From a virus (taxonomy: Duplodnaviria > Heunggongvirae > Uroviricota > Caudoviricetes), in the IMG/VR virus record IMGVR_UViG_2681813004_000010: 18,165 nucleotides of DNA. One strand, given 5' to 3'. The position numbers were made by a program, and so were the translations under genes. The first letter of the stretch is position 1. Each line of letters starts with the position of its first letter. Under the pieces are notes generated by a model. That model was given only the letters and a program-made list of their open reading frames with translations. It was not told the origin of the DNA and made no database searches. Below, piece after piece: positions 1 to 16,415 of the stretch.

Positions 1-2948
<2,948 letters not shown>

Positions 2949-2968
<20 letters not shown>

Positions 2969-4268
2969 TCTCCCGCATATTGCCAGTATGGCCTTTAATG
3001 AGCCGCTGATGCTTGAACCCGCCTATGCGCGGGTTTTCTTTTGTGCGCTTGCAGGCCAGCTTGGGATCAGCCGCCTGACGGATGCAGTATCCGGCGACAG
3101 CCTGACTGCCGGAGAGGCACCCGCGGCGCTGGCGTTATCCGGTGATGATGACGGACCACGACAGGCCCGGAGTTATCAGGTCATGAACGGCATCGCCGTG
3201 CTGCCGGTGTCCGGTACGCTGGTCAGCCGGACGCGGGCGCTGCAGCCGTATTCGGGGATGACCGGTTACAACGGCATTATCGCCCGTCTGCAACAGGCTG
3301 CCAGCGACCCGATGGTGGACGGCATTCTGCTCGATATGGACACACCGGGCGGAATGGTGGCGGGAGCATTTGACTGTGCTGACATCATCGCCCGTGTGCG
3401 TGACATAAAACCGGTATGGGCGCTGGCCAACGACATGAACTGCAGTGCAGGTCAGCTGCTTGCCAGCGCCGCCTCCCGGCGTCTGGTCACGCAGACCGCC
3501 CGGACAGGCTCCATCGGCGTCATGATGGCTCACAGTAATTACGGTGCTGCCCTGGAGAAACAGGGCGTGGAAATCACGCTGATTTACAGCGGCAGCCATA
3601 AGGTGGATGGCAACCCCTACAGCCATCTACCGGGTGATGTCCGGGAAACACTGCAGTCCCGGATGGATGCAACCCGCCGGATGTTTGCGCAGAAGGTGTC
3701 GGCATATACCGGCCTGTCCGTGCAGGCTGTGCTGGATACCGAGGCTGCAGTGTACAGCGGTCAGGAGGCCATTGATGCCGGACTGGCTGATGAACTTGTC
3801 AACAGCACCGATGCGATCACCGTTATGCGTGATGCACTGGATGCACGTAAATCCCGTCTCTCAGGAGGGCGAATGACCAAAGAGACTCAATCAACAACTG
3901 TTTCAGCCACTGCTTCGCAGGCTGACGTTACTGGCGTGGTGCCAGCGATGGAGGGCGAAAACGCCAGCGCGGCGCAGCCGGACGTGAACGCGCAGATCAC
4001 CGCTGCGGTTGCGGCAGAAAACAGCCGCATTATGGGGATCCTCAACTGTGAGGAGGCTCACGGACGCGAAGAACAGGCCCGCGTGCTGGCAGAAACCCCC
4101 GGTATGACCGTGGAAACGGCCCGCCGCATTCTGGCCGCAGCACCACAGAGTGCACAGGCGCGCAGTGATACTGCGCTGGATCGTCTGATGCAGGGGGCAC
4201 CGGCACCGCTGGCTGCAGGTAACCCGGCATCTGATGCCGTTAACGATTTGCTGAACACACCAGTGTAA
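2949..4268 (+). CDS. C: prohead protease / minor capsid protein gpC (S49 peptidase family), GTG start
   Basis: Translation from the GTG at 2949 reads (M)TAELRNLPHIASMAFNEPLMLEPAYARVFF…, matching lambda gpC (439 aa). The six-frame track's upstream start at 2814 is an extension running through the B 3' end. Confidence 0.85.
3663..4268 (+). CDS. Nu3: scaffolding protein Nu3, in-frame nested within the 3' part of C
   Basis: In-frame ATG at 3663 (MDATRRMFAQKVSAYTG…), 714 nt downstream of the C start, the same offset as lambda Nu3; shares the C stop. Confidence 0.6.
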   Translation: MDATRRMFAQKVSAYTGLSVQAVLDTEAAVYSGQEAIDAGLADELVNSTDAITVMRDALDARKSRLSGGRMTKETQSTTVSATASQADVTGVVPAMEGENASAAQPDVNAQITAAVAAENSRIMGILNCEEAHGREEQARVLAETPGMTVETARRILAAAPQSAQARSDTALDRLMQGAPAPLAAGNPASDAVNDLLNTPV

Positions 4269-4630: not shown

Positions 4631-4652
4631 GGCCGCCTGTGCGGCTTTTTTT
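4631..4652 (+). terminator. D-E intergenic stem-loop with T-run (GCCGC-CTGT-GCGGC-TTTTTTT)
   Basis: Perfect 5-bp GC stem followed immediately by 7 T; the same intergenic hairpin I recall between lambda D and E. Probably an attenuator or mRNA processing element rather than a full terminator. Confidence 0.5.
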
Positions 4653-4665
4653 ACGGGATTTTTTT

Positions 4666-4941
4666 ATGTCGATGTACACAACCGCCCAGCTGCTGGCGGC
4701 AAATGAGCAGAAATTTAAGTTTGATCCGCTGTTTCTGCGTCTCTTTTTCCGTGAGAGCTATCCCTTCACCACGGAGAAAGTCTATCTCTCACAAATTCCG
4801 GGACTGGTAAACATGGCGCTGTACGTTTCGCCGATTGTTTCCGGTGAGGTTATCCGTTCCCGTGGCGGCTCCACCTCTGAATTTACGCCGGGATATGTCA
4901 AGCCGAAGCACTTAGCATGGCTTTCTGAGGCTTTCGTGTAG
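4666..4941 (+). pseudogene. E: major capsid protein gpE, 5' fragment (codons 1 to ~82, then 9 unrelated codons and a stop)
   Basis: MSMYTTAQLLAANEQKFKFDPLFLRLFFRESYPFTTEKVYLSQIPGLVNMALYVSPIVSGEVIRSRGGSTSEFTPGYVKPKH matches the lambda gpE N-terminus. After ~4911 the sequence becomes …LAWLSEAFV-stop and lambda collinearity ends. Intact gpE is 341 aa. Confidence 0.85.
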
Positions 4942-5073: not shown

Positions 5074-6309
5074 ATGGCTGGTGAGAACAAACTGAGCGAC
5101 AAAGCACTTAAAGGATATCTGGGGAAACCCAGAGAAAAGCAGATCACCATTGCTGATGGAAAGGGGCTTTCTATTCGTGTGAGTACCAAGGGGGCTGTGA
5201 GCTTTGTTTTCTTCTACAGGTTAGCAGGTGGCCGGGCTGCTCCGGTCTGGCTAACGTTGGGTAAATATCCTGATATGTCACTCAAACAGGCAAGGGAAAA
5301 GCGCGACGAGTGCCGTGGTTGGTTGGCTGACAAACGTGATCCGCGTATCCAGATTAAGATTCAGGCTGAAGAACGCTTAAAGCCGGTCACAGTGGAGGAT
5401 GCACTAAATTACTGGTATGAAAATTACTGTAAGGTGCGTCGTAAAACTCATGCTGTAACGCTTGGCAGATTTCGAAAGCATATCTTTCCCTATATCGGTC
5501 ATTTGCCCGTAAATGACACTCACCTATATGAATGGCTGGACTGTTTTGACCGAATTAAACGTAATGCACCAGTTATGGCGGCGTATGTTTTTTCTGACAC
5601 TAAATTAGCTCTTCGTTTTTGTCGGGTACGCCAGTACGCGACGTGTGATGCTTTAAAGGATTTGCGCATGAGTGATGTGGGGCAGATTGCAGGTAAGCGG
5701 GATCGGGTTCTGGATGAAGCCGAACTGGGCCAGCTCTGGAAGGCAATTTTTGTCGAGCCTGATTTAAAACTAATGTCTGAATACACGCGAAAAATGTTTG
5801 TGCTTTGTACAGTATTTGGATGTCGAATGAGTGAAGCCCGATTATCAGAATGGAGCGAATGGGATCTCGAAAGTTGGGTTTGGACTGTACCAAAAGAACA
5901 CTCAAAAACCGGTGTTGAAATCGTCAGACCAGTACCTGAAATTCTACGACAGTGGGTAACGGATGTTCACGAAGAGACAAAACATACTGGTTATGTGCTG
6001 GGAAGTCTGCGAATTAGAGAAAGCGTAAGCAAGATTGGGGGGAAAATCGGTAAACGTTTGGGCCATGAAAAACAATGGTCACTACACGACCTTAGAAGAA
6101 CGCTATCTACTCATCTAAGTGATCTCGGTGTTGAATTTTATGTAGTAGAACAACTGTTAGGCCATGCGCTACCTGGCGTGGCAGGTGTTTACAACCGGAG
6201 TAAGTTTATGGCTAAAAAACTGGATGCTCTGGAACTCTGGACTACATATCTCAATAGCATCGCAGGTGCTGATTCAAAAGTGACAATCCTCAAACAAAAG
6301 GCTGGTTAA
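5074..6309 (+). CDS. int: tyrosine site-specific integrase, P4-type
   Basis: N-terminus (GKGLSIRVSTKGAVSFVFFYRLAGG…LTLGKYPDMSLKQAREKRDE) looks like the arm-binding domain of P4-like integrases. C-terminal catalytic region has …WSLHDLRRTLSTHL… and …LLGHALPGVAGVYNR (H-x-x-R and catalytic Tyr). The track start at 4942 is an extension; the ATG at 5074 is taken as the start by homology. Confidence 0.9.
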   Translation: MAGENKLSDKALKGYLGKPREKQITIADGKGLSIRVSTKGAVSFVFFYRLAGGRAAPVWLTLGKYPDMSLKQAREKRDECRGWLADKRDPRIQIKIQAEERLKPVTVEDALNYWYENYCKVRRKTHAVTLGRFRKHIFPYIGHLPVNDTHLYEWLDCFDRIKRNAPVMAAYVFSDTKLALRFCRVRQYATCDALKDLRMSDVGQIAGKRDRVLDEAELGQLWKAIFVEPDLKLMSEYTRKMFVLCTVFGCRMSEARLSEWSEWDLESWVWTVPKEHSKTGVEIVRPVPEILRQWVTDVHEETKHTGYVLGSLRIRESVSKIGGKIGKRLGHEKQWSLHDLRRTLSTHLSDLGVEFYVVEQLLGHALPGVAGVYNRSKFMAKKLDALELWTTYLNSIAGADSKVTILKQKAG

Positions 6310-6310
6310 C

Positions 6311-6541
6311 ATGAAAAAAATGGCAATTGTTGATAAAAAGGGTCTGGAGTACATTCCTAACATCGATCGTATGATCCGTGAGAAAGAATGTCGGGAGCTA
6401 ACCACTCTTGCGAACAGCACACGCTGGAAGCTGGAGAAGGAAGGAAAATTTCCTAAGCGGATCAAGATTGGTTCCACTGCTGTTGCATATCGTCTTTCAG
6501 AAGTGCAGGCATGGATTCGAGGTGAGTGGATTGAGAAATAA
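6311..6541 (+). CDS. alpA: AlpA-family HTH regulator / excisionase-like protein
   Basis: 76 aa, …ECRELTTLANSTRWKLEKEGKFPKRIKIGSTAVAYRLSEVQAWI…, the typical AlpA (prophage CP4-57 regulator) pattern. Lies immediately downstream of int, overlapping its stop. Confidence 0.8.
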   Translation: MKKMAIVDKKGLEYIPNIDRMIREKECRELTTLANSTRWKLEKEGKFPKRIKIGSTAVAYRLSEVQAWIRGEWIEK

Positions 6542-6555
6542 TATTTGGAGAATCT

Positions 6556-7473
6556 ATGAGTAGAATGATTAATACCTTGTGCCCTTATAGCCTTATCCCA
6601 TTAAATCAAATAGAACATAATGGAGAACATGTTTTATTAGCTGGATTAGGAGCTCCGGAAAGTTTTACTGTGAATGTTTCAAAAGAAGAAAATACACGAA
6701 TTAACGATTTGTTGGATGAACCATTCTTAGGAATGGAAATAATAAAATTACTCTCGTCTATTTCGGGTCTTCAATCAAGGAGTGGTGAAGTGAAGCCATT
6801 TTTTACTGGAATTACTGAGGGTGGAGATGCGGTGCATGTTAGGATGTCTCCTGGCGAAGTGACATTGAAAGTTAAAAGTCCAGTAGTGAAGGATAAAAAT
6901 AATAATATTGTTGCAGTAACTGGTTACGAAAAGGAGGTACAAGAAACTTTGTTATCAATCACAAAAAAATATGAAGCCAAGGGGTTTTCTGTAATTACTT
7001 CCGCTCCTATAAATCGAGAGGCTGAGATCAAGCTTAACTTCAATTTGGATATTGAATTATTAAATTATCAATATTTAAAGATGGCCTATCTTACAATGGT
7101 CTACGTATTTGGTGATCGCGGGATTAAGTGTCCGGCTGCGAATGAAATTAGAAAAATAATTCTGAATAAATCACCCCTGCCTTCAACTTTAAAAGGTGTT
7201 CGTTCTCTATCATGGGATGTCAATACTTTACCATTACTGCCAAATGTTGATACCCACAAACACATTGTTGCAAGTTTTAATATTCATGGGGAAGTAGTAT
7301 GTGCAGTGTCACTTTTTGGTGTATTTAATAAAGTATTTCTCATTGAAAATGAATTGGTGGATAAGGATAATGTTTTTGGTGAGATATATGAAGTCGACTA
7401 TAAAACAAGAAAAATCAATAGAACGGATATTGTTCAGCGCATTAATGAGGTTACAAAAAACGTACAGTTTTAA
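6556..7473 (+). CDS. hypothetical protein, AT-rich cargo gene (305 aa), function unknown
   Basis: Long ORF with a good SD (GGAGAA 5 nt upstream) and markedly lower GC than its neighbours. No family recognised by eye; N-terminus has C-x-Y … EH-x-GEH … GLG, faintly HNH-like, but I cannot confirm it. Followed by a hairpin/T-run. Confidence 0.6.
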   Translation: MSRMINTLCPYSLIPLNQIEHNGEHVLLAGLGAPESFTVNVSKEENTRINDLLDEPFLGMEIIKLLSSISGLQSRSGEVKPFFTGITEGGDAVHVRMSPGEVTLKVKSPVVKDKNNNIVAVTGYEKEVQETLLSITKKYEAKGFSVITSAPINREAEIKLNFNLDIELLNYQYLKMAYLTMVYVFGDRGIKCPAANEIRKIILNKSPLPSTLKGVRSLSWDVNTLPLLPNVDTHKHIVASFNIHGEVVCAVSLFGVFNKVFLIENELVDKDNVFGEIYEVDYKTRKINRTDIVQRINEVTKNVQF

Positions 7474-7866: not shown

Positions 7867-7918
7867 GTGTTCAACACTTGAAGTGTTCAACACCTTTGGT
7901 TAAATTGGTGTTCAACAC
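7867..7918. promoter_or_regulatory. three operator-like repeats GTGTTCAACAC in the divergent control region
   Basis: Exact 11-mers at 7867-7877, 7883-7893 and 7908-7918; the 11-mer is a near-palindrome (GTGTT-C-AACAC). Located between the minus-strand RHH gene and the plus-strand operon starting at 8016. Confidence 0.5.
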
Positions 7919-8439: not shown

Positions 8440-8727
8440 ATGAAAAATAAATTTTCTGGCTTTATTGCCAGCGGTCAAACTCATTCAAAAATCAGCCTTG
8501 GGGATATTTTCAAAGACAGCTATGGCTATCGGGTAAAGATTATTTCGGTTGATGATCGTCGTGTCTCTTATTTGCGTGATGGTTATGATTTTGAATGTGT
8601 TATGCCGCGTCAGCAGTTCGAAAGAGATTTCATTCTGGTAAAAAATTGCAAGACAGATAATCAGAGGCGTGCCGCAGGCTATATCCGTAAAATTCGGGCA
8701 ATGTTAGTTGCCGGAGGTAACAAATGA
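8440..8727 (+). CDS. hypothetical small protein (95 aa)
   Basis: GGAGAA SD 6 nt upstream; stop overlaps the primase start (ATGA). Confidence 0.5.
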   Translation: MKNKFSGFIASGQTHSKISLGDIFKDSYGYRVKIISVDDRRVSYLRDGYDFECVMPRQQFERDFILVKNCKTDNQRRAAGYIRKIRAMLVAGGNK

Positions 8728-10544
8728 AACGTGCTCCGAACTTAAAATACCAACCGCGCGACAAAATGACGGAAGTCATCATTTTTGCTGGCAGTGATGC
8801 CTGGAGCCATGCAAAAGAATGGAATGAATGGGCAGGTAAGCATATTGCAGCAGATGATACACCACCAGTCATTCTGGGTACGGAACAACTGGAAAACCTG
8901 GATGATATGCAAATTATCGATGAAGGCCGTCATTATGTGCGTGTTTATCGTGCCGGAAAGATTGCAGAGAAAAGTCTGACGAAGGTTGCGACATTACTTG
9001 CTATTGCAGGCGTAAAGGAAGCACGTTGTTACCGTAGCTTTGTTGATCGAGAGCCTGAAGACTGGACTCCGCGCCTTGTCGGCCTAAAAGCTGAAGCGGA
9101 GCATGGGGAAAGTCTGGTGATTGAACTGCCAGTGAAGAAGGCTGAGCGCAAAAATGACGAGCGTGCTTCATCTTTGGCGTTGAATCAGATGGGGGCCAGC
9201 CAGCGCGGTGAAGTTCTCCTTGCACATTACGGCGGCGAACTGGCAATCAATGCCGACTCTGACACCGTTCATCATTACAACGGCGTTGTATGGGAGCCGG
9301 TTCAGGATAAAGAGTTACAGCGTGCTATGGCGCAGATTTTCATTGATGCGGAGATCAGCTATTCGCAGAACGCTATTAAATCGGCGGTAGATACCATGAA
9401 GTTAAGTTTGCCTGTAATGGGGAATACAGCCCGTAACCTGATTGGATTCAGTAACGGGGTATTTGATACCAGAACTGGTAATTTTCGGGAGCATAACAAA
9501 AACGACTGGTTGTTAATTGCCAGTGAATTACCTTTCAGCCCACCAGCAGAGGGGGAAACGCTGGCAACACATGCGCCGAATTTCTGGAAGTGGTTGCGCC
9601 GTTCGGTGGCTGAGAATGACCGCAAGGCAGATCGCGTACTGGCGGCATTATTCATGGTGCTGGCGAACCGGTACGACTGGCAGTTATTCATTGAGGTAAC
9701 AGGGCCGGGGGGAAGTGGTAAAAGTGTGATGGCGGAGATTTGCACCATGCTGGCGGGTAAGGCTAATACAGTATCAGCAAGCATGAAGGCGCTGGAAGAT
9801 GCAAGGGAACGTGCGTTAGTGGTTGGCTTTTCGCTGATTATCATGCCGGATATGACCCGCTACGCTGGTGATGGGGCAGGGATTAAGGCCATTACAGGCG
9901 GTGACAAGGTGGCAATTGACCCGAAACACAAAGCCCCCTATTCAACGCGTATTCCGGCAGTAGTACTGGCGGTTAACAATAACGCCATGTCATTCAGTGA
10001 CCGCAGCGGGGGGATCTCACGTCGTCGGGTGATATTCAATTTTTCGGAAGTTGTACCGGAGAACGAACGCGATTCGATGCTGGCGGAAAAAATAGAAGGT
10101 GAGCTGGCGGTAGTGATTCGTCATCTGCTTACACGGTTTGCTGATCAGGACGAAGCCAGACGCCTGTTATATGAGCAGCAGAAATCTGAAGAAGCACTGG
10201 CGATAAAGCGAGAGGGGGATTCGCTGGTGGACTTCTGCGGCTATCTCATGGCATCGGTAATGTGTGATGGCCTATTAGTGGGTAATGCTGAAATTGTGCC
10301 ATTCAGCCCACGCAGGTATCTCTATCATGCCTATCTGGCTTATATGAGGGCACATGGGTTTGGTAAACCTGTAACACTGACGCGCTTCGGTAAAGATATG
10401 CCGGGGGCAATGGCGGAATATGGCAGGGAGTATATGAAACGGAAAACGAAGCACGGTTTGCGTTCAAACGTGACACTGACGGAGGAATCAGAGGACTGGA
10501 TGCCATCATGTGTATCGGTCACTAATGACGATAGCAAAAATTAA
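8724..10544 (+). CDS. replication primase/helicase, P4-family (D5-like SF3 NTPase domain)
   Basis: 606 aa. Walker A FIEVTGPGGSGKSV, hydrophobic Walker B …LVVGFSLIIMPDM…, then …GIKAITGGDKVAIDPKHKAPYS…, typical of phage/plasmid P4-family primase C-terminal domains. GGAGGT SD; iteron origin immediately downstream. Confidence 0.8.
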   Translation: MKRAPNLKYQPRDKMTEVIIFAGSDAWSHAKEWNEWAGKHIAADDTPPVILGTEQLENLDDMQIIDEGRHYVRVYRAGKIAEKSLTKVATLLAIAGVKEARCYRSFVDREPEDWTPRLVGLKAEAEHGESLVIELPVKKAERKNDERASSLALNQMGASQRGEVLLAHYGGELAINADSDTVHHYNGVVWEPVQDKELQRAMAQIFIDAEISYSQNAIKSAVDTMKLSLPVMGNTARNLIGFSNGVFDTRTGNFREHNKNDWLLIASELPFSPPAEGETLATHAPNFWKWLRRSVAENDRKADRVLAALFMVLANRYDWQLFIEVTGPGGSGKSVMAEICTMLAGKANTVSASMKALEDARERALVVGFSLIIMPDMTRYAGDGAGIKAITGGDKVAIDPKHKAPYSTRIPAVVLAVNNNAMSFSDRSGGISRRRVIFNFSEVVPENERDSMLAEKIEGELAVVIRHLLTRFADQDEARRLLYEQQKSEEALAIKREGDSLVDFCGYLMASVMCDGLLVGNAEIVPFSPRRYLYHAYLAYMRAHGFGKPVTLTRFGKDMPGAMAEYGREYMKRKTKHGLRSNVTLTEESEDWMPSCVSVTNDDSKN

Positions 10545-10557
10545 ACTTATGGAATAA

Positions 10558-10780
10558 CTGTTCACCACTGTTCACCCTGTCATAAATATCTTTTATATCA
10601 GTATATTATAGGGTGAACAGTTATTTATGAACTGTTCACCAAACTATTCACTGTTCACCTTTTTGATTGTTTATTGAGCTTCAAGGGTGAACAGTGGTGA
10701 ACAGTTGGTGAATAGTTTTTGTGAAACTGTTCACCCATTAACATTATGAATTAAAAGAGAAAATATCAAAAGGTGAACAG
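10558..10780. repeat. iteron array / candidate replication origin (9-mer CTGTTCACC and complement GGTGAACAG)
   Basis: Perfect forward copies at 10558, 10568, 10632, 10651 and 10727; reverse copies at 10612, 10686, 10696 and 10772; plus degenerate copies (CTATTCAC, GGTGAATAG, GGTGAAGG). Embedded in AT-rich DNA directly after the primase gene. Confidence 0.7.
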
Positions 10781-10831
10781 GTGAAGGGTTAAAACGCAAA
10801 AATTTTAATTTACTGCTGTGAGATAAAGCCT

Positions 10832-11077
10832 ATGACAGCGAAGCACACAAAAAAATCACAATCGCACGCCCTTGATTTGACTGAACACTGGTTAAGGGTG
10901 TCGATAAAAATCATCGACCGCAACGCCGGGGAAGGATACGCGAAAGCACATCCCGAACTGATTAGCGCATTCATGACAACGGCGGCTGCAAACTTTGCCA
11001 CTCTGACCGAACGGGAGATTGCTGAAGCGGAGGAAGTGACAACAATCAATATTAAGTCCGGAGAGCAGGCAGCATGA
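10832..11077 (+). CDS. hypothetical protein (81 aa)
   Basis: ORF between ori and ssb; stop overlaps the ssb start (ATGA). Weak SD. No family recognised. Confidence 0.45.
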   Translation: MTAKHTKKSQSHALDLTEHWLRVSIKIIDRNAGEGYAKAHPELISAFMTTAAANFATLTEREIAEAEEVTTINIKSGEQAA

Positions 11078-11605
11078 CGGCGCAAATATCAGTTTACGGG
11101 CGGTTGGTGGACGACCCGCAGACAAAACAGACCAGCAAGGGCACCCCCATGACGCTGGCGCGTATGGCGGTATCACTGCCTTGCAGTCAGTCGGATGACG
11201 GTCAGGCGACGATGTGGTTATCTGTCCTGGCGTTTGGCAGACAAGCCGACGCGCTGGCAAAGCATCACAAATGCGAACTCCTGAGCGTGGCGGGTAACAT
11301 GCAGATGAGCCAGTGGACTGGACAGAACGGCGAAACGCGGCAGGGCTGGCAGGTTATCGCAGACAGCGTAATCAGTGCGCGATCGGTGCGACCGGGCGGC
11401 AAAACAGAACGGCGAAACGCGGCAGGGCTGGCAGGTTATCGCAGACAGCGTAATCAGTGCGCGATCGGTGCGACCGGGCGGCAAAAAAGGCCAACAGGGG
11501 CAGGCTACTGACGCACTGAACAGAGCAAAACAACAGGCAGATCAGCAAGGAAGCCAGCCACCAGTGGGAGATAATGAGCAATGGGGAGATGATATCCCAT
11601 TTTAA
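11074..11605 (+). pseudogene. ssb: single-stranded DNA-binding protein (SSB), frameshifted by an internal 82-bp tandem duplication
   Basis: N-terminal OB-fold-like sequence MTAQISVYGRLVDDPQTKQTSKGTPMTLARMAVSL…WLSVLAFGRQADALAKHH…. The canonical SSB C-terminal tail …QPPVGDNEQWGDDIPF is present but in the +1 frame (track ORF 11375-11605). Removing one 82-bp unit restores a single ~150-aa SSB. Confidence 0.7.
11322..11485. repeat. perfect tandem duplication, 2 x 82 bp
   Basis: Unit acagaacggcgaaacgcggcagggctggcaggttatcgcagacagcgtaatcagtgcgcgatcggtgcgaccgggcggcaaa occurs at 11322-11403 and again at 11404-11485. 82 is not a multiple of 3. Confidence 0.9.
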
Positions 11606-13617: not shown

Positions 13618-13854
13618 GGGCCCGCTCTGGCTGGCGGGTCCTTTCCGGCGATCTGACAGGTTACGGGGCGGCGACCTCGCAGTTTTTCGCTATTTGTGAA
13701 AATTTTCCTGTTTAAGGCGTTTCCGTTCTTCTTCGCCGTAACTTAATGTTTTTATTAAAAACACCCCCTGAAAAGAAAGGAAACGACAGGTGCTAAAAAC
13801 AGGCTTTTTGGCCTCTGTCGTTTCCTTTCTCTGGTTTTGTCCGTGGAATGAACA
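13618..13854 (+). other. cos: lambda-type cos site (cosQ-like flank, cosN with 12-nt cohesive end GGGCGGCGACCT at ~13666-13677, cosB region up to Nu1)
   Basis: …gggtcctttccggcgatctgacaggttacg|gggcggcgacctcgc… matches my recollection of the lambda right-end / left-end junction; the downstream sequence up to the Nu1 ATG resembles the lambda cosB region with a few substitutions. Confidence 0.8.
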
Positions 13855-14400
13855 ATGGAAGCCAACAAAAAGCAGCTGGCTGACATTTTCGGTGCGAGTA
13901 TCCGTACCATTCAGAACTGGCAGGAGCAGGGAATGCCCGTTCTGCGAGGCGGTGGCAAGGGTAATGAGGTGCTTTATGACTCTGCCGCCGTCATAAAATG
14001 GTATGCCGAAAGGGATGCTGAAATTGAGAACGAAAAGCTGCGCCGGGAAGTTGAAGAACTGCGGCAGGCCAGCGAGACAGATCTCCAGCCAGGGACTATT
14101 GAGTACGAACGCCATCGACTTACGCGTGCGCAGGCCGACGCACAGGAGCTGAAAAATGCCAGAGACTCCGCTGAAGTGGTGGAAACCGCATTCTGTACTT
14201 TCGTGCTGTCGCGGATCGCAGGTGAAATTGCCAGTATTCTCGACGGGATCCCCCTGTCGGTGCAGCGGCGTTTTCCGGAACTGGAAAACCGACATGTTGA
14301 TTTCCTGAAACGGGATATCATCAAAGCCATGAACAAAGCAGCCGCGCTGGATGAACTGATATCGGGGTTGCTGAGTGAATATATCGAACAGTCAGGTTAA
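13855..14400 (+). CDS. Nu1: terminase small subunit Nu1
   Basis: 181 aa, MEANKKQLADIFGASIRTIQNWQEQGMPVLRGGGKGNEVLYDSAAVIKWYAERD…, near-identical to lambda Nu1 as I recall it. 26-nt overlap with A as in lambda. Confidence 0.92.
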   Translation: MEANKKQLADIFGASIRTIQNWQEQGMPVLRGGGKGNEVLYDSAAVIKWYAERDAEIENEKLRREVEELRQASETDLQPGTIEYERHRLTRAQADAQELKNARDSAEVVETAFCTFVLSRIAGEIASILDGIPLSVQRRFPELENRHVDFLKRDIIKAMNKAAALDELISGLLSEYIEQSG

Positions 14401-16114
14401 CAGGCTGCGGCATTTTGTCCGCGCCGGGCTTCGCTCACTGTTCAGGCCGGAGCCACAGACTGCCGTTGAATGGGCGGATGCTAATTACTATCTCCCGAAA
14501 GAATCCGCATACCAGGAAGGGTGCTGGGAAACACTGCCCTTTCAGCGGGCCATCATGAATGCGATGGGCAGCGACTACATCCGTGAGGTGAATGTGGTGA
14601 AGTCTGCCCGTGTCGGTTATTCCAAAATGCTGCTGGGTGTTTATGCCTACTTCATAGAGCATAAGCAACGCAACACACTTATCTGGTTGCCGACGGATGG
14701 TGATGCCGAGAACTTCATGAAAACTCACGTTGAGCCAACCATCCGTGATATTCCGTCGCTGCTGGCGCTGGCTCCGTGGTATGGCAAAAAGCACCGGGAT
14801 AACACGCTCACTATGAAGCGTTTCACCAATGGTCGTGGCTTCTGGTGCCTGGGCGGTAAAGCGGCAAAAAACTACCGTGAAAAGTCGGTGGATGTGGCGG
14901 GTTATGATGAACTTGCTGCCTTTGATGAGGATATTGAACAGGAAGGCTCTCCGACGTTCCTGGGCGATAAGCGTATTGAAGGCTCGGTCTGGCCAAAGTC
15001 CATCCGTGGCTCCACGCCCAAAGTGAGAGGCACCTGTCAGATTGAGCGTGCAGCCAGTGAATCCCCGCATTTTATGCGTTTTCATGTTGCCTGCCCGCAC
15101 TGCGGGGAGGAGCAGTACCTTAAATTTGGCGATAAAGAGACGCCGTTTGGCCTCAAATGGACGCCGGATGACCCCTCCAGCGTGTTTTATCTCTGTGAGC
15201 ATAATGCCTGCGTCATCCGTCAGCAGGAGCTGGACTTTACTGATGCCCGTTATATCTGCGAAAAGACCGGGATCTGGACCCGTGATGGCATTCTCTGGTT
15301 TTCGTCATCCGGTGAAGAGATTGAACCGCCTGACAGTGTGACCTTTCACATCTGGACGGCGTACAGCCCGTTCACCACCTGGGTGCAGATTGTCAAAGAC
15401 TGGATGAAGACGAAAGGGGATACGGGAAAACGTAAAACCTTCGTGAACACCACGCTCGGTGAGACGTGGGAAGCGAAAATCGGCGAACGTCCGGATGCTG
15501 AAGTGATGGCAGAGCGGAAAGAGTATTATTCAGCGCCCGTTCCTGATCGTGTGGCTTACCTGACCGCCGGTATCGACTCCCAGCTGGACCGCTACGAAAT
15601 GCGCGTATGGGGATGGGGGCCGGGTGAGGAAAGCTGGCTGATTGACCGGCAGATTATTATGGGCCGCCACGACGATGAACAGACGCTGCTGCGTGTGGAT
15701 GAGGCCATCAATAAAACCTATACCCGCCGGAATGGTGCAGAAATGTCGGTATCCCGTATCTGCTGGGATACTGGCGGGATTGACCCGACCATTGTGTATG
15801 AACGCTCGAAAAAACATGGGCTGTTCCGGGTGATCCCCATTAAAGGGGCATCCGTCTACGGAAAGCCGGTGGCCAGCATGCCACGTAAGCGAAACAAAAA
15901 CGGGGTTTACCTTACCGAAATCGGTACGGATACCGCGAAAGAGCAGATTTATAACCGCTTCACACTGACGCCGGAAGGGGATGAACCGCTTCCCGGTGCC
16001 GTTCACTTCCCGAATAACCCGGATATTTTTGATCTGACCGAAGCGCAGCAGCTGACGGCTGAAGAGCAGGTCGAAAAATGGGTGGATGGCAGGAAAAAAA
16101 GCGGTGTCTTATAA
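14375..16114 (+). pseudogene. A: terminase large subunit gpA, copy 2, truncated after codon ~575 (fused to E 3' sequence, ends …GRKK-SGVL-stop)
   Basis: MNISNSQVNRLRHFVRAGLRSLF… is collinear with lambda gpA through …EQVEKWVDGRKK, then reads 4 codons into E-derived sequence and stops. Copy 1 shows the normal continuation (…ILWDSKKRRNEALDCF…GEDE), so ~66 C-terminal codons are missing here. Confidence 0.85.
15134..16100 (+). repeat. direct repeat copy 2 (A gene segment), partner at 1-967
   Basis: See copy 1. The repeat ends at the A7 run (16094-16100), where copy 2 diverges into E sequence. Confidence 0.95.
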
Positions 16115-16415
16115 GGGAATGTATGGCGATGTGGCCATCGTCGTGTATTCCGGACAGTACGTGGAAAACGGCGTCAAAAAGAACTTCCTGCCGGACAACA
16201 CGATGGTGCTGGGGAACACTCAGGCACGCGGTCTGCGTACCTATGGCTGTATTCAGGATGCGGACGCACAGCGCGAAGGCATTAACGCCTCTGCCCGTTA
16301 CCCGAAAAACTGGGTGACCACCGGCGATCCGGCGCGTGAGTTCACCATGATTCAGTCAGCACCGCTGATGCTGCTGGCTGATCCTGATGAGTTCGTGTCC
16401 GTTCAACTGGCGTAA
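16098..16415 (+). pseudogene. E: major capsid protein gpE, 3' fragment (about codons 237-341)
   Basis: KAVSYKGMYGDVAIVVYSGQYVENGVKKNFLPDNTMVLGNTQARGLRTYGCIQDADAQREGINASARYPKNWVTTGDPAREFTMIQSAPLMLLADPDEFVSVQLA matches the lambda gpE C-terminus. It is joined in a different frame to A codon ~575 and has no own start except a fortuitous ATG at 16086. Confidence 0.85.

Follow-up and report, generated by a model that had tools for sequence, protein, structure and literature searches.

The stretch of DNA analyzed here (the window; 18,165 nucleotides of the Caudoviricetes record IMGVR_UViG_2681813004_000010) holds a lambda-like head-gene cluster encoding the C-terminal part of terminase A, W, the portal protein B, the protease C, the decoration protein D, and the first ~90 codons of the capsid protein E, which is broken at about 4.9 kb by an element that reaches ~16.1 kb. 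The N-terminal (4639-4941) and C-terminal (16086-16415) parts of capsid gene E are both co-oriented with this element. Its genes include an integrase (int; 5074-6309, + strand) recognized by its Pfam tyrosine recombinase domains, an AlpA-like regulator (6311-6541, + strand), and, after alpA, a very AT-rich ORF of 305 aa (6556-7473; GC, ~0.30 to 0.35) that has no Pfam or PHROG match and could be an accessory or defense cargo gene. These are followed by a YlcI/YnfO-like gene on the opposite strand, an Icd-like gene, a DUF4222 gene, pri (8724-10544, + strand), a cluster of repeats, a small ORF, an SSB gene (11074-11511, + strand), capsid and decoration genes, and an HTH regulator. The int, alpA, pri, SSB, capsid, and decoration genes all lie on the + strand, and the element has both the size (10 to 20 kb) and the late-gene homologs of a PICI. 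In Escherichia coli 980-2, the same element is found at 99.3% identity, flanked by the two halves of a prophage major capsid gene, each of them annotated as a pseudogene. Because it splits capsid gene E, with head genes on either side, the element is a PICI lodged in a lambdoid prophage, within its major capsid gene, i.e., a helper-embedded PICI. The helper-embedded PICI 11capE (PMC10111431) likewise carries int, alpA, pri, SSB, capsid, and late-gene homologs; the paper describing it does not dissect the origin, and the copy in our window differs in having a rearranged right end.

The repeats directly downstream of pri are built on the 9-mer CTGTTCACC, of which nine perfect copies, all within positions 10558 to 10780, occur in the window: five on the + strand (starting at 10558, 10568, 10632, 10651, and 10727) and four on the − strand (10612, 10686, 10696, and 10772). 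The chance expectation is 0.12 copies, and nine or more were reached in none of 200 dinucleotide-preserving shuffles. Three degenerate copies accompany them, namely, CTATTCACT at 10644 (+ strand), which overlaps the next iteron at 10651; CTATTCACC at 10707 (− strand), with one mismatch; and CCCTTCACC at 10780 (− strand; GGTGAAGGG as read on the + strand), which overlaps the one at 10772. The initial annotation had described at least nine perfect 9-mers in both orientations plus several degenerate copies, packed into AT-rich noncoding DNA straight after the pri stop codon, and this description is borne out down to the exact coordinates of the perfect copies: the GC content is 0.335 to 0.345, versus about 0.44 to 0.55 in the flanking genes; no open frame in the repeat region exceeds 32 aa; and the first iteron begins 14 bp past the stop codon at 10544. 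An Rfam search of the repeat region gave no match, and a full-text literature search for the 8-mer core TGTTCACC returned unrelated primer sequences alone. Positions 10500 to 10850 contain neither a DnaA box (with up to one mismatch allowed) nor a perfect IHF site nor a GATC, so that the region does not have the DnaA boxes and IHF or GATC sites beside the iterons that characterize plasmid iteron origins of the host-DnaA type.

A cluster of repeats between two co-oriented genes might also consist of operators, through which Pri or another protein regulates the genes from 10832 onward or read-through from pri, with no role in replication; initiators commonly autoregulate through their own iterons. 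We regard this explanation as extremely improbable. A scan of positions 10400 to 10900 yielded no match to a sigma-70-like promoter or an intrinsic terminator, an operator would need far less than twelve sites and two AT-rich spacers in 230 bp, and the homologous regions of phage P4 and the PICI EcCICFT073 (see below) are, respectively, annotated and experimentally tested as replication elements.

The arrangement of the sites is highly ordered. The twelve iterons form two units of ~120 bp placed head to head, which together make up an imperfect palindrome of ~280 bp centered about 10672; this symmetric element (about 10534 to 10813), delimited by inverted repeats and by the alignment of one half to the other, is slightly larger than the span of the perfect copies (10558 to 10780). 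It contains long imperfect inverted repeats (54 nt at 74% and 36 nt at 83% identity), and its left half (10540-10668), when reverse complemented, aligns with the right half (10672-10800). As expected from such a dyad, a long hairpin is predicted for the region in single-stranded form (z = -7.6). Relative to the pri stop codon, the sites have offsets of 15>, 25>, 68<, 89>, (100>), 108>, 142<, 152<, 163(<), 184>, 228<, and (236<), and their spacings are mirror symmetric around ~10672. Each half thus comprises three iterons 10 to 11 bp apart, an interval of 20 bp, one opposed iteron, an AT-rich spacer of 35 to 45 bp, two opposed iterons, and an A/T tract. In the left unit (10545-10668, − strand) we find two perfect iterons 10 bp apart (10558-10576, + strand), an AT-rich spacer (10577-10611) with facing iterons on either side, a single perfect iteron (10612-10620, − strand), and a group of three (10632-10659, + strand; perfect at 10632 and 10651 and degenerate at 10644). 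A central spacer (10660-10685) at the center of the dyad separates this group from the corresponding triplet of the right unit (10672-10800, + strand), in which iterons with a spacing of 10 to 11 bp are perfect at 10686 and 10696 and carry one mismatch at 10707 (10686-10715, − strand). This triplet is followed by a single perfect iteron (10727-10735, + strand), the right AT-rich spacer (10736-10771), two overlapping iterons (10772-10788, − strand; the first perfect and the second, at 10780, degenerate), and an outer A/T tract (10791-10813), which mirrors positions 10534 to 10548 on the left side and is kept in relatives and in the P4 units. In a nearest-neighbor scan of duplex stability, the regional minimum for 30-bp duplexes fell at positions 10580 to 10609, within the left spacer (-27.0 to -27.9 kcal/mol); it ties the minimum of the whole window, in which 30-bp duplexes average -41.5 kcal/mol (standard deviation, 3.8), and the left spacer is the likeliest site of melting. 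Within the region, the right spacer comes next in order of instability (-29.4 to -30.7 kcal/mol at 10740-10769).

The product of the adjoining gene, Pri (606 aa), consists of an N-terminal module of ~130 aa, a central region with D5_N and an SF3 helicase (DUF5906), and a C-terminal origin-binding domain. It is matched by the Pfam families D5_N, DUF5906, and Pox_D5, and its helicase also matches the papillomavirus E1 helicase family weakly (PF00519; E = 1.9e-4); its score with the TIGR01613 model (primase, P4 family) falls below the cutoff of that model. Pri is 51% identical to residues 323 to 771 of the α protein of phage P4, and the two genes have in common a stretch of 403 bp with 69% DNA identity. 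The C-terminal domain (aa 498 to 594; 10215-10505, + strand) was matched by a phmmer search to the origin-binding domain of P4 α (PDB code 1KA8; E = 1.9e-24), which is called a winged-helix domain in the title of Yeo et al. (2002). The initial annotation had taken the gene for that of an initiator lying next to its own iterons, and both the presence of this domain and its covariation with the iteron word across lineages (see below) speak for that assignment. Its further description as a primase/helicase holds for the SF3 helicase and origin-binding parts, which are readily recognizable, and not for the primase part: residues 1 to 159 of Pri have no Pfam match, while the same search with residues 1 to 323 of P4 α recovered Zn_Ribbon_Prim and Toprim_3. 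As the N terminus thus lacks the Zn-ribbon/Toprim match of P4, the label "primase" is unproven for Pri. By sequence comparison, the Zn-ribbon and Toprim primase domains with which P4 α starts are both replaced in Pri by the module of ~130 aa, for which we found no family assignment. This module is conserved and self-contained and is fused to differing downstream modules across homologs; it has a predicted α/β fold with a weak resemblance to the Toprim primases and lacks the DxD motif. Within it (aa 1 to ~130; window positions 8724-9120) we noted the invariant pattern TE.IIFAGSDAW.HA..W…PPV.L.

The relationship to P4 extends to the DNA that the initiator would recognize. P4 α binds type I iterons, and the minimal P4 ori1 is ~123 bp in length with six iterons and a 35-bp AT-rich stretch, which fits the unit of ~120 bp defined above. 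We drew further information on P4 mainly from its annotated record and from PDB entry 1KA8. The record marks "ori type 1 repeats" at two places, the origin (9086-9809) and crr (the "cis required region for replication"). The latter directly follows the α gene and is 4.5 kb away from the annotated ori. The type 1 repeat is the 8-mer TGTTCACC, identical to that of the window and present in P4 in 11 perfect copies (six in ori and five in crr), most of which extend to the same 9-mer, CTGTTCACC. Both halves of the window origin align with P4 ori positions 9295 to 9430 and with each of the 120-bp repeats of crr; like the P4 unit, they combine five to six iterons with an AT-rich stretch of ~35 bp in ~120 bp, and the triple-iteron arrangement at 10686 to 10715 matches that of P4 ori positions 9310 to 9338. 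Even the spacers have text in common: the right spacer resembles the crr spacer (gaattaaaagagaaaatatcaaaa versus gaaattaaaagagaaaaacgaaa in crr), and gaattaaaagagaaaatatcaaaaGGTGAACAG of the window corresponds to gaaattaaaagagaaaaacgaaaGGTGAACAG of crr. The cluster follows pri as crr follows α, and the helicase and origin-binding domains of the two proteins are homologous. The two replicons differ in their overall plan. That of P4 is bipartite, with one ori unit and two direct crr units 4.5 kb apart, whereas that of the window comprises two inverted, abutting units in one cluster. Homologs of the P4 genes sid, psu, delta, and epsilon were not matched among the ORFs that we scanned against PHROGs and Pfam, of which those at 6556-7473 and 13690-14295 (− strand) had no match at all.

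A direct functional counterpart is available in the PICI EcCICFT073, the sequence of which we took from the CFT073 chromosome. Fillol-Salom et al. (2018; PMC6092414) cloned its rep-ori (pri-ori) in a temperature-sensitive plasmid and obtained colonies at the restrictive temperature, and colony formation was lost or reduced when either rep (pri) or ori was deleted. EcCICFT073 has the gene order of the window element: YlcI/YnfO (− strand), Icd-like, DUF4222, pri, ori, small ORF, SSB, capsid, and decoration. Its Pri protein is 44% identical to that of the window over the full length and has the same three-part architecture. The 288-bp gap after its pri gene reproduces the order, orientation, and spacing of the window iterons, along with the two AT-rich or spacer segments. 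The differences concern the word itself, which is CTGTCTACC/GGTAGACAG in place of CTGTTCACC and is accompanied by a differing wing segment in Pri; the right spacer, which is GC rich in EcCICFT073 and AT rich in the window; and the location, since EcCICFT073 occupies a chromosomal att site beside phoQ whereas the window element resides in a prophage gene. Because of the conserved synteny, the iteron layout, and the homology of the Pri proteins, the window region is, as judged from these comparisons, the ortholog of the experimentally tested EcCICFT073 origin. Like the origins of Gram-negative PICIs, the organization of which has been described in the PICI literature as common to no other replicon, it lies directly 3′ of pri and contains two sets of iterons flanking AT-rich DNA. 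The layout of a PICI or satellite origin that the initial annotation saw in the region is therefore well founded, as the region corresponds to the EcCICFT073 ori in both position and architecture and is homologous to P4 ori and crr; it consists of two inverted units of the P4 type rather than a simple array of iterons. A second set of repeats lies upstream of the pri operon, where the near-palindrome GTGTTCAACAC occurs in three copies at 7867-7918 between the divergent YlcI/YnfO-like and Icd-like genes; the equivalent spot of EcCICFT073 has GTGGGCCACACC twice. We considered and rejected these repeats as a second Pri site comparable to P4 ori1, as GTGGGCCACACC does not follow the Pri word of EcCICFT073. 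They probably serve as operators for a regulator distinct from Pri and show a specificity variation of their own.

We extended the comparison to 72 related loci from Enterobacterales and Pasteurellaceae. Close relatives retain the TGTTCACC cluster directly 3′ of the gene, and other lineages have a different repeated word in the same, equally AT-rich place, the words including TGTCTACC, TGTCCACC, TGTCCGCC, TGTGCACC, and TCTCTACC. By source, CTGTCTACC is found in Escherichia ruysiae, Kluyvera, and Enterobacter; CTGTCCGCC and CTGTCCACC are found in Serratia; CTGTGCACC is found in Proteus; and CTCTCTACC is found in Symbiopectobacterium. The order, orientation, and spacing of the sites are kept while the word switches at all sites together. 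In an alignment of the C-terminal domains, the segment after the EYxK motif, i.e., the wing, differs according to the word: GGTGAACA goes with KRKTKHG-IRSN (KRHTKQG-IQTN in P4); GGTAGACA, GGCGGACAG, and GGTGGACAG go with a rewritten wing that has a 5-residue insertion; and GGTGCACAG goes with YYYN. The mapping is not one to one, as EcCICFT073 combines a GGTAGA-type word with a different wing. Among relatives with the same word, column identity is 0.70 in the iterons versus 0.60 in the spacers; the gap is modest, in part because the alignment slips, and this comparison, which if anything speaks against an origin, is not among our main lines of evidence. The P4-type relative from Erwinia rhapontici (locus L017) has two separate TGTTCACC clusters (3052-3144 and 9508-9610), one lying about 3 kb upstream of its α-like gene and the other about 2 kb downstream, and none directly after the gene; the match to its protein begins at residue 146 of Pri, so that the window-type N terminus is absent, and its two-cluster plan resembles the bipartite ori-plus-crr plan of P4. 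The 287-bp origin region of the window was recovered from 688 of the 5,426 complete E. coli genomes, in 164 of them at an identity of ≥99%, and it is annotated in none of the 688.

The likeness to crr raises the alternative that the cluster acts solely as a cis-acting replication enhancer, with initiation at a second site in the element. The occurrence of P4 crr in the same position after α, with two ~120-bp units of the same iterons and the annotated ori 4.5 kb away, is in keeping with this, as are the two separate clusters of the Erwinia relative. Nevertheless, we consider it very unlikely. The window contains a single iteron cluster and no second one anywhere along its length, and PICI-type relatives have none within ±6 kb; in EcCICFT073, the counterpart of the nearby GTGTTCAACAC repeats, the other conceivable site, does not go along with the Pri word. 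Furthermore, the window units align equally well with P4 ori and with crr, including the triple iteron typical of ori, and pri together with the equivalent gap of EcCICFT073 is enough for plasmid replication (PMC6092414).

Several lines of evidence, namely, the nine copies of the 9-mer against an expectation of 0.12, the identity of the word to that of P4, the alignment of both units with those of P4, the match of Pri to 1KA8, the covariation of word and wing, the orthology with EcCICFT073, the presence of a single cluster, and the absence of promoter and terminator matches, lead us to conclude that the repeat cluster is very probably the vegetative replication origin of a Gram-negative helper-embedded PICI, with Pri as its iteron-binding initiator. 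At the origins of SV40 and the papillomaviruses, inverted sites for the initiator (large T antigen and E1, respectively) beside easily melted DNA serve the head-to-head loading of SF3 helicases; the origin sequences are unrelated to that of the window, and the comparison is one of analogy alone. With this model in mind, we propose that Pri would bind the TGTTCACC iterons via its C-terminal winged-helix domain and that the helical spacing of the arrays would put its protomers on one face of the DNA. Pri oligomers assembled on both units might then melt the AT-rich spacers bracketed by facing iterons, with positions 10580 to 10609 being the weakest point, and the inverted units would load SF3 helicases in opposite directions. 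Primers could be supplied by the N-terminal module of Pri or by the host primase DnaG, and bidirectional theta replication would ensue once the helper induces the satellite.

The copy of the element in the window has suffered damage, which bears on whether its origin is still in use. A perfect tandem duplication of 82/83 bp (11322-11486) shifts the frame of the SSB gene, and the acidic C-terminal DDIPF tail of the 980-2 copy is gone. At the right end, positions 13634 to 14162 match both the cos/terS of the satellite and the cos/Nu1 of the helper, and the sequence from ~14162 to 16100 follows helper Nu1-A; its final part (15134-16100) is a 967-bp direct repeat of window positions 1 to 967 at 99.9% identity, after which a junction at 16098 to 16100 leads directly to capsid codon ~237. 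What the window lacks relative to the intact copy of E. coli 980-2 is attR, the remainder of satellite terS, the gene for DUF2971, and capsid codons ~80 to 236; the duplicated 5′ segment of helper Nu1-A stands in their place. None of the 5,426 complete E. coli genomes has the resulting A/E junction as one contiguous match. The rearrangement of the right end may show a PICI in the act of acquiring late genes, or it may simply be decay. The satellite cos/terS copy at 13634-14162 is closely related to the helper cos/Nu1 (as compared with positions 21052-21580 and 6001-6529 of locus L001), which fits packaging by the helper terminase and would provide homology for recombination with the helper.

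With attR lost and the SSB gene frameshifted, this copy may no longer complete the satellite cycle, and one could go further and regard the region as an origin by descent that lies idle in a decaying copy, a relic that does not fire productively. The missing right end, the frameshift, and the junction absent from complete genomes all point in that direction. On the other hand, Pri is full length, the 287-bp origin is 100% identical to the copies in other genomes, and firing in situ would need neither attR nor the satellite SSB, E. coli having an SSB of its own. On balance, an idle relic appears unlikely to us, and we infer that the origin is functional in this copy too.

The kind of origin was already known from the 2018 work (PMC6092414), the type of element hosting it was known from the 2023 work (PMC10111431), and the iteron word was known from P4. 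What is new is the fine map of the origin, the homology of its units to those of P4, down to an identical word, the plan of two inverted units that persists across changes of the word, and the series of matched wing and word variants; beyond the map, the tie to P4, and the variant series, the region is typical of a class already described. For an origin that goes unannotated in about one-eighth of the complete E. coli genomes, the map makes twelve iterons, two inverted units, and two putative melting sites available for testing.

The families of PICIs and P4 are usually treated as unrelated, and their helpers differ, being lambdoid phages in one case and P2 in the other. Our results tie the Gram-negative PICI replicon to that of P4 at three levels: unit plan, iteron word, and origin-binding domain. 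Variants with matched iterons and wings constitute a natural system for studying changes of initiator specificity and may be usable for the construction of orthogonal replicons. The identical word and the homologous origin-binding domains further raise the tentative possibility of cross talk, in which α fires or titrates the PICI origin or Pri acts on P4 ori and crr, and an equally tentative one is in situ amplification by copies that do not excise. If cross talk does occur, satellites in one cell would be expected to cross-activate each other or to be incompatible, and the repeated switching of word and wing across lineages would represent escape from such interference. In copies unable to excise, Pri-driven firing within the late operon of the prophage could amplify the helper head genes and cos region in situ.
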